From: an uncultured Chlamydiales bacterium
GTDB lineage: Bacteria > Chlamydiota > Chlamydiia > Chlamydiales > JAAKFR01
Length of the DNA stretch: 64,000 nucleotides
Direction: 5' to 3'
Assembly: GCA_963699155.1 (NCBI GenBank)
Contig: OY969414.1
Coordinates: forward strand, 843,757-907,756
Shown piece after piece: positions 53,821 to 54,348 of the stretch. Both the position numbers and the translations under genes were made by a program. Every line of letters begins with the position of its first letter. The first letter of the stretch is position 1. A model generated the notes under the pieces. The model worked only from the letters and a program-made list of their open reading frames with translations. It made no database searches and was not told where the DNA came from.

Positions 53821-54348
53821 TTAGCCCTTACCTGTCACTTTATCATGAATCCAGGTCGCCAGTTTGCCTGCCCCATAACCTGCAATGGCGCCTATAGCGA
53901 GAACGATGGGGACACCTAGAAGAAGAGGAGGGAAGCCTCCTGATATTGCTTCTAATTGTTTATCTGTCAATGCACCCATTTCTGAAGCCATGGGAATCAC
54001 GAGATAGAGTTTTCTTGGTTCATCTTCGATCACCTCGATCTGGCGTTCTTTAGGGATAAAAACTCCATTTTTTTCGAGAAAAGCGCGAGGATTTGATTTG
54101 AATTCCTTTCGGGTGACAGGATCTCTTAATTTTTGAAAGAGCTCTCCTTCTTCGCCTGGAAGATTAGGTATTGGCAGGACAAAATAGACTTTTTTGGGAC
54201 TATTCTCAAGAATGATGACAGAAACATCTTCGGGTAGTTGGATCTGACATTCTTGCTCGATGGTCTTTTTTGGATTTTGTTTCAGCTTCTCCTTAAAGGA
54301 GGGATTCTTAACTGCATTATTGACAATCTCTTCTAATTGTTTTTTCAT
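53821..54348 (-). CDS. NHLP-family RiPP/bacteriocin precursor with two tandem NHLP leader domains
   Basis: Two repeats of ..(N/D)P.(F/T)...(L/F)K.NP......(L/I)P.......E..P.K.Y.V(L/I)P, then LTDKQLEAISGG and a 37-aa hydrophobic core. Confidence 0.85.
   Translation of the reverse strand: MKKQLEEIVNNAVKNPSFKEKLKQNPKKTIEQECQIQLPEDVSVIILENSPKKVYFVLPIPNLPGEEGELFQKLRDPVTRKEFKSNPRAFLEKNGVFIPKERQIEVIEDEPRKLYLVIPMASEMGALTDKQLEAISGGFPPLLLGVPIVLAIGAIAGYGAGKLATWIHDKVTGKG

Follow-up and report, generated by a model that had tools for sequence, protein, structure and literature searches.

Leader peptides of the nitrile hydratase-like kind (NHLPs) have been described as nitrile hydratase alpha chains carrying a 63-residue deletion that removes the CxxCSC motif (Haft 2010, PMC2887384), and structural work treats them as single folded domains of ~80 aa (PMC10858898, PMC12537861, PMC12455567). 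In environmental chlamydiae, predicted proteusin or RiPP-like clusters (RiPP, ribosomally synthesized and posttranslationally modified peptide) have been described at the level of antiSMASH calls (PMC13229535, PMC9666466). We examined an NHLP gene in a 64,000-nucleotide stretch of an uncultured Chlamydiales genome (contig OY969414.1, positions 843,757 to 907,756; here called the window). An earlier note on this DNA had read the gene as an orphan bacteriocin-like RiPP precursor with a tandemly doubled leader. The 175-aa protein encoded on the minus strand at 53821..54348 matched that note exactly, and by its sequence it is a precursor variant within the known NHLP family. The orphan label did not survive: the same genome encodes 17 NHLP genes and two export operons, which rules that reading out. 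The parts of the target gene are as follows.

53821..54348, minus strand: coding sequence of the two-unit NHLP precursor, 175 aa plus stop (TIGR03793, 104.1 bits in two stretches)
54166..54348, minus strand: leader unit 1, aa 1-61, modeled as three helices plus a beta-hairpin, no cleavage motif (TIGR03793, 54.1 bits for aa 1-60)
53971..54165, minus strand: short linker and leader unit 2, aa 62-126 (TIGR03793, 52.4 bits for aa 66-136)
53935..53970, minus strand: cleavage/recognition motif LTDKQLEAISGG, aa 127-138, read from the sequence and conserved in the paralog alignment
53824..53934, minus strand: predicted core peptide, aa 139-175, GxxxG hydrophobic stretch and cationic tail (from composition and TIGR03949)
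54357..54362, minus strand: AAGGAA resembling a ribosome-binding site, 8 nt ahead of the ATG and within the 15-nt gap to the upstream gene

The two-unit leader, its paralogs and its predicted fold

Two leader repeats were evident with the NCBIfam model of the NHLP leader (TIGR03793; cut-off, 50.9 bits; 77 model positions). The full protein scored twice the cut-off in two separate stretches, and each half exceeded it when run alone (54.1 and 52.4 bits), in line with the two repeats read in the earlier note. Unit 1 covers model positions 5 to 60 and unit 2 covers positions 16 to 75; because its match ends at position 60 of 77, unit 1 is without the cleavage end. The leader is thus 138 aa long, with two units and a single cleavage site. 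Its sole GG, at aa 137-138 (53935-53940), is preceded by LTDKQLEAIS, and read from the sequence, this motif places Leu at -12 and -7 and Gly-Gly at -2/-1. An LxxxxL motif in the same position is known from proteusin leaders and from the way leaders bind to the LahT peptidase (PMC10858898). The only Cys lies at aa 34, and CxxCSC is absent from the 175-aa protein.

The 37-aa core that follows contains no Cys, no Ser, two Thr and seven Gly, with two GxxxG motifs and a net charge of +2, confirming the Cys- and Ser-free GxxxG core with a cationic tail noted earlier. Its 19-residue hydrophobicity maximum is 2.09, and a 23-residue hydrophobic stretch is followed by basic residues. The suggestion of a class II-like membrane-active core was borne out at the margin by the class IIb model TIGR03949 (lactobin A/cerein 7B), which scored 22.3 bits against a cut-off of 21.5 over aa 127-161, a marginal match that includes the GG motif. 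Among the NCBIfam and Pfam models, the core alone matched no family at a useful E-value, and the bacteriocin signal model TIGR01847 reached 12.4 bits, below its cut-off of 15.7.

The source genome is a single 2,399,326-bp contig scored 100% complete. Across it, the NHLP model gave 31 matches, corresponding to 17 open reading frames (ORFs) and one degenerate match with stops. The 17 ORFs comprise 13 two-unit proteins (168 to 201 aa) and 4 single-unit proteins (114 to 133 aa). All 12 doubled ORFs other than the target gave two NHLP stretches, and 11 of them scored above the cut-off (the remaining ORF, at locus L014, reached 49.3 bits). The two-unit pattern is therefore not a chance feature of one gene, because 12 further ORFs of the same genome show it. 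In an alignment of all 13, the others were 20 to 34% identical to the target. A conserved block, L-S/T-x-x-E/Q-L-x-x-I-x-G-G, stands directly before the variable part, with G at -1 in 11 of 13 proteins and GG in 8. Mean pairwise identity was 31% for unit 1 and 30% for unit 2 but 17.5% for the cores; judged from sequence, this is the combination of conserved leader and variable core that is usual for precursors. Only five of the 13 cores reach the hydrophobicity of a membrane helix, and none of the five from the related genome G034 described below does. With a variable post-GG part and few hydrophobic cores, the segment behaves as variable cargo rather than as a conserved anchor. The earlier note had named a conserved anchor together with a genome devoid of exporters as one outcome that would speak against it; the post-GG segments proved variable and an exporter is present. 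A W-I-x-D-K-like tail is common to several cores, including that of the target, and the paralog at L022 scored 26.1 bits with TIGR03949 (above 21.5).

The leader structure was predicted with AlphaFold2 from an 18-row alignment and compared with known structures by Foldseek and VIA-align. The predicted local distance difference test (pLDDT) was ~90 over aa 1-125 (unit 1, ~84 to 97; predicted template modeling score, 0.68), and the core was disordered in the model (pLDDT < 50). Each unit was modeled as three helices and a hairpin (unit 1, helices 2-14, 16-24 and 26-34 and strands 43-48 and 53-58; unit 2, helices 69-73, 77-85 and 87-93 and strands 103-108 and 113-118). The top structural matches were nitrile hydratase alpha and thiocyanate hydrolase gamma (e.g., PDB 4zge, 1v29 and 2dd4), which superposed over 123 to 130 residues with Z values of 10 to 12 and a root mean square deviation of 3.2 to 3.8 Å (model 1-151 versus chain ~41-200); nitrile hydratase alpha itself gave Z 11 to 12 over 125 to 128 residues. 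The solved structure of a single NHLP leader, 8tb1, superposed on the model over 60 residues (Z 5.4). In addition, the doubled-leader profile aligned with residues 68-202 of 1v29_A in one stretch, and Pfam NHase_alpha (PF02979) matched at 34.4 bits (aa 7-134 versus profile positions 43-173). The two units are thus predicted to pack into a complete two-repeat nitrile hydratase alpha fold, minus the CxxCSC metal site. The deletion that defines canonical NHLPs is not seen in the length of the two-unit form, from which the cysteines are missing. The earlier note had proposed that the doubled leader mimics an oligomeric leader scaffold; this is unsupported because a single NHLP leader is monomeric when in solution (PMC10858898), and the model points to a rebuilt enzyme fold instead.

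We also asked where the second unit came from. When unit 1 alone was compared with Pfam NHase_alpha across 18 doubled proteins, 14 mapped to the second repeat of the enzyme (positions 113-160), 2 mapped to the first (43-96) and 2 gave no match. The mapping of 14 of 18 to the second repeat favors duplication of an NHLP unit, and the sequence evidence leans towards that origin over retention of the first repeat of the enzyme. On a tree of 36 leader units, units 1 and 2 need six changes, of which the starred branches force only one; doubling once and doubling several times both fit this tree. Unit 1 shares 28.5% identity with unit 2 of its own protein and 26.8% with the unit 2s of other proteins, which makes it no closer to the former.

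Export operons, modifying enzymes and relatives

The earlier note reported no exporter or modifying gene in the window, which holds for the annotated genes from 44 to 63 kb. Elsewhere in the genome, we detected two NHLP-type export operons, each with HlyD, an ATP-binding cassette (ABC) transporter with a C39 peptidase domain (ABC1) and a second ABC protein (ABC2):

Genome 2.20 Mb (L012): TolC-like outer membrane efflux protein (OEP), HlyD, ABC1 and ABC2, with intact catalytic Cys/His
Genome 0.57 Mb (L011): short HlyD, ABC1 and ABC2, with Ser/Gln replacing the catalytic Cys/His

In the L012 operon, HlyD scored 199 bits with TIGR03794 (cut-off, 156.2), ABC1 scored 910.8 bits with TIGR03796 (cut-off, 853.3) and 125.2 bits for its C39 peptidase, with the motifs ECGAA, NHF and NDP, and the 1000-aa ABC2 scored 685.6 bits with TIGR03797, just below the cut-off of 709.4. 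The same three motifs occur in ABC1 of G034. The L011 operon, ~5 kb from a single-unit NHLP gene, gave 903.6 bits for ABC1, 770.8 for ABC2 and 143.2 for HlyD (cut-off, 156.2). From sequence, one complete exporter with an apparently active peptidase is therefore available in trans. Because this NHLP-type C39 exporter is complete and lies in the same genome, ~1.3 Mb away, maturation of the target in trans, as suggested before, is plausible. A complex prediction for the C39 domain with precursor aa 112-175 scored 0.29 against a mark of 0.32, which speaks neither for nor against their pairing. Directly after the intact operon lie IS481-like integrase and DDE transposase genes (L012:15233-17704, genome 2.21 Mb).

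Genes for the classical modifications were sought genome-wide. YcaO (PF02624) had no match in the genome, with the control matching in 5 of 14 genomes, and LanC-like (PF05147) and nitrile hydratase beta (PF02211) proteins likewise had none. Eleven Radical_SAM ORFs were detected (MtaB, MiaB, MqnC, MqnE-like, RimO, HemW, HemN, LipA, two RlmN and EpmB), and by sequence all are housekeeping genes, assigned to equivalogs or near them. A PoyD-like match (TIGR04517) was absent from the genome in a search whose control matched nowhere. Three kinds of product were considered on this basis. A thiazole/oxazole-modified microcin (TOMM) precursor is at odds with the lack of a YcaO match and with a core of 0 Cys, 0 Ser and 2 Thr, and a class II lanthipeptide with an NHLP leader is at odds with the lack of a LanC-like match and with the Cys-free core. 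The earlier alternative of an epimerised or methylated, polytheonamide-type proteusin found no backing, given no PoyD-like match (in a search without a working control) and radical-SAM genes that are all housekeeping. With no YcaO or LanC-like gene and only housekeeping radical-SAM genes, cleavage at GG and export without the classical NHLP modifications is most likely.

Paralog neighborhoods were equally plain. Pfam annotation of 148 ORFs within 6 kb of the 12 paralog loci, and of 14 around the target, returned housekeeping and host-interaction genes; no known RiPP enzyme was found among those 148 ORFs, and no candidate enzyme recurred beside the 12 loci. By its gene content the genome is chlamydial: Pfam families near the paralogs or in the window included a TLC ATP/ADP transporter (window), a CT021-family protein, CesT and a secretin. 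Eukaryote-like effector candidates also lie near NHLP paralogs (L015:5571-8030 and 13431-15908; L011:18186-19547), namely a protein with leucine-rich repeats and a NEL E3 ligase, a UCH deubiquitinase-like protein and an F-box protein. Integrase fragments of the insertion sequence (IS) type adjoin paralogs in L017, L020 and L021.

We also searched related genomes and public sequence data. Of 41 genomes covered at the level of genus, family and order, 11 have NHLP genes. The same-genus genomes G002 and G003 carry single-unit NHLP genes only and have no counterpart of the target core. In G034, from another family of the order, five tandem doubled precursors (201 to 223 aa) are encoded divergently from an OEP-HlyD-ABC1-ABC2 operon. 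The cores of these G034 precursors (L036:8654-12586) are acidic and Ser/Gly-rich, GGE/GES repeats occur in two of them, and a GNAT (Acetyltransf_3) gene comes after the five precursors; the arrangement recalls the acylated NHLP-derived lipopeptides that have reportedly been found. In G178, which belongs to yet another family, a doubled precursor of 164 aa whose core is short and rich in Cys/Ser (L044:5990-6481) scored 103.2 bits with TIGR03793 in two stretches, aligned with TIGR01323 (aa 7-147 versus positions 39-174) and has a GG end. It directly precedes a fused SagC/D cyclodehydratase (TIGR03604, 267.7 bits; TIGR03882, 79.8 bits), SagB (170.3 bits), HlyD, ABC1 and ABC2. The region L044:5990-17286 constitutes a complete TOMM cluster in a chlamydial genome; it includes an unassigned 316-aa ORF, with a single-unit NHLP gene on the opposite strand. 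The survey of Chlamydiota for double-leader homologs that the earlier note had suggested thus yielded examples in two further genomes.

In a sample of 300 genomes across the phylum, with ABC1 counted at E ≤ 1e-150, 36 genomes carried NHLP and 51 carried ABC1. ABC1 was found in 29 of the 36 NHLP genomes versus 22 of the 264 without NHLP, an association that is descriptive only, since related genomes are not independent. Doubled frames in this sample were clear in G000, G034 and G178; G108, G130 and G292 may have split ones.

A word-based homolog search with the target protein returned, among 80 candidates, only the target itself. A profile of 18 doubled proteins, run against 1.84 billion representatives, gave 8261 matches at E ≤ 1e-3 and 46 at E ≤ 1e-30; unit counts and motifs were read on the best 150 of the 8261. 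By the unit model, 146 of these 150 have two units and four have four units (14 of the 150 are query proteins), and none contains CxxCSC. An LxxxxL..GG-type end follows the last unit in 129 of the 150, with a median core of 36 aa; among those 129, Cys occurs in 48 cores and 33 are membrane-helix-like. The doubled leader, which the earlier note had regarded as a departure from the normal single one, is therefore not special to this organism. A 325-aa four-unit protein from a Calothrix metagenome-assembled genome (MAG) bears the NCBI name "NHLP leader peptide family RiPP precursor," so the architecture is already in databases under an ordinary family name. That precursor has an Arg/Trp-rich core and adjoins JmjC/cupin and Trp halogenase genes (L043:8001-11836), and two further four-unit proteins (P0013 and P0014) come from metagenomes. 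No description of a doubled NHLP leader was found in the open-access papers searched. In the protein atlas, single-unit NHLP clusters carry an automatic class IIb name with scores of at most 0.86, which serve as leads only.

Immediately upstream of the target, an outer-membrane beta-barrel gene (54364..55128, minus strand) ends 15 nt before the target ATG, and the nearest same-strand terminator-like hairpin lies at 55225-55200, upstream of that gene; the two genes are probably cotranscribed. The neighboring genes (the beta-barrel gene and lepA) include no second GG peptide gene, although small immunity genes could escape notice. Farther upstream, the window contains a ~1.9-kb tandem duplication at 55271-58303 (copies 100% and 98% identical; spacing, 1900-1901 bp). 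It carries outer-membrane beta-barrel genes with a CCYTNPCC-like N terminus, and truncated copies lie between two 265-aa copies with identical Pfam scores (56184-56981 and 58084-58881). A 575-aa protein at 48686-50413 shows a weak trypsin-like peptidase and Sel1 repeats, both below the Pfam cut-offs. On the other side of the target, lepA (52007-53810) is split into 476 aa and 108 aa (LepA_C) by a frameshift near 53410-53420, and rpoC (locus L016) is broken into three or more pieces (3166-4185, 4185-5036 and 5716-6681). These splits suggest single-base assembly errors or real decay, and with frameshifts in both genes, single-base errors are likely in this genome. The frame of the target is intact and is backed by homologs.

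Proposed maturation of the target and competing explanations

Taken together, these results make it rather likely that the target is a two-unit NHLP precursor that is cleaved at GG, exported unmodified and released as a class II-like membrane-active peptide. The folded two-unit leader would keep the hydrophobic core soluble in the cytoplasm. Its LxxxxL..GG helix would then dock in the C39 domain of the exporter at 2.20 Mb, which would cut after Gly138 and expel the 37-aa peptide through the HlyD/TolC-like channel across both membranes. The peptide would carry no azoles, lanthionines or epimerisation. Once released, it may insert into a membrane in the manner of a class II bacteriocin, the target being a rival bacterium or a host-derived or vacuole membrane.

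Several observations weigh against this explanation. We infer cleavage and export from family rules only, and modification is judged absent only as far as known enzyme families go. The match to the class IIb model is at threshold, with part of its score coming from the GG motif; neither a partner peptide nor an immunity gene turned up in the target neighborhood, and the 23-residue hydrophobic stretch would equally suit a membrane anchor. The intact exporter is distant from the target, and the NHLP gene nearest to it is a single-unit gene 24 kb off. The L011 operon looks degenerate: Ser and Gln occupy the positions of the C39 Cys and His in its ABC1 (L011:12397-14547), and at 282 aa its HlyD is short and matches only the C-terminal part of TIGR03794. 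The peptidase-like domain of this ABC1 may be inactive or binding-only, or the operon may be decaying. Doubled ORFs at L014 and L020 have no GG site, and with the state of the L011 operon, this means that the NHLP family could be decaying. Finally, the frameshifts in lepA and rpoC call for caution on gene calls in this genome.

Three other accounts of the protein were considered. The target could be a genuine modified RiPP whose core is tailored before export by an unsought or unrecognized enzyme, such as an acyltransferase, hydroxylase, methyltransferase or halogenase with its gene elsewhere. Multi-unit precursors do stand beside tailoring enzymes in other genomes (SagC/D and SagB in G178, JmjC/cupin and Trp halogenase in Calothrix, and GNAT in G034), and large distances between NHLP precursors and their enzymes are on record (PMC2887384). 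However, the genome gave no YcaO, LanC-like or PoyD-like match, its radical-SAM genes are housekeeping, no candidate enzyme recurs beside the 12 paralog loci, and the Cys- and Ser-free core with its two Thr offers few handles for the usual chemistries; we consider this account unlikely. A relic family is rather improbable as well. Here, an ancestral thiazole/oxazole cluster like that of G178 would have lost its enzymes, leaving scattered precursors to drift without function. The missing maturases, the loss of the catalytic Cys/His in one of two export operons, the two paralogs that lack GG, the absence of an ortholog of the target core from G002 and G003 and the IS elements that flank the intact exporter would all fit such a history. 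Yet 13 doubled ORFs are still open in a genome whose assembly has frameshifts even in lepA and rpoC, both leader units of the target exceed the family cut-off with a confident model, and one complete exporter has kept its catalytic triad.

It is quite improbable that the target is instead a small, uncleaved, tail-anchored membrane protein, its nitrile hydratase-like domain serving some other role in the cytoplasm. The hydrophobic stretch with its basic residues (maximum, 2.09), the similar stretches in four other paralogs and the W-I-x-D-K-like tail shared by several cores are compatible with an anchor. In contrast, sufficient hydrophobicity is reached by only 5 of the 13 cores here and by none of the 5 in G034, LxxxxL..GG is conserved just ahead of the variable part, doubled precursors cluster with the C39 exporter in G034 and G178, and no nitrile hydratase beta partner was found in the genome.

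Beyond the favored explanation of GG cleavage and unmodified export, we put forward a broader and more tentative model, which we regard as possible if doubtful. Multi-unit leaders may form a widespread subclass that rebuilds the entire nitrile hydratase alpha fold as an inbuilt domain for both chaperoning and recognition where cores are long or hydrophobic. In this chlamydia, the subclass would have expanded to 13 genes and all tailoring enzymes would have been lost. As an obligate intracellular bacterium, it would then export an unmodified membrane-active arsenal through one type-I-like exporter, directed at rival symbionts or at the membrane of its own host vacuole. Two-unit leaders are common in public data and occur in at least three gene contexts (exporter only, thiazole/oxazole enzymes and halogenase). 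The predicted restoration of the parent-enzyme fold bears on the descent of these leaders from nitrile hydratase and on their recognition by enzymes and exporters. That 17 precursor genes and a dedicated exporter are kept in a 2.4-Mb host-dependent genome suggests, from gene content, that secreted peptides matter inside the host.

Comparison with described systems

The target agrees with the NHLP family (TIGR03793), as far as that family is described in PMC2887384, in having no CxxCSC, an LxxxxL..GG end, a variable core and many paralogs. It further agrees in that precursors lie far from the export genes and co-occur with the TIGR03794/03796/03797 exporter (PMC2887384). It differs in leader length and make-up: the canonical leader is one unit of ~83 to 87 aa (PMC2887384), whereas that of the target is 138 aa, two units collinear with ~130 residues of nitrile hydratase alpha. 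Modifying enzymes of the kinds linked to the family were not found in the target genome. With nitrile hydratase alpha and thiocyanate hydrolase gamma (PF02979 and TIGR01323), the target shares a predicted fold over ~126 residues. Unlike nitrile hydratase alpha, it scores 32.4 bits with TIGR01323 against 249.85, has neither CxxCSC nor a beta gene and carries an attached core bounded by GG.

Class IIb bacteriocins typically have leaders of ~15 to 25 aa, two adjacent peptide genes and an immunity gene, and come from Gram-positive bacteria. The target resembles them (TIGR03949) in its GG-type leader end followed by a Gly/Ala-rich hydrophobic GxxxG peptide; in contrast, its leader is 138 aa, and neither a partner nor an immunity gene was seen nearby. 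The precursor of the G178 TOMM cluster is like the target in its two-unit leader, GG end, exporter type and phylum. That precursor has a short Cys/Ser-rich core beside a cyclodehydratase and SagB, whereas the target core is Cys- and Ser-free and hydrophobic, in a YcaO-free genome. Two nitrile hydratase-like leader regions in one polypeptide, as in the target, are also described for the fused NHLP-Burk pairs of Delftia and Acidovorax (TIGR03795; PMC2887384). As far as that description goes, these are two whole precursors fused, with a possible two-peptide product and with neither a GG motif nor an NHLP-type exporter (PMC2887384). The target, in contrast, has the order leader-leader-core and one cleavage site.

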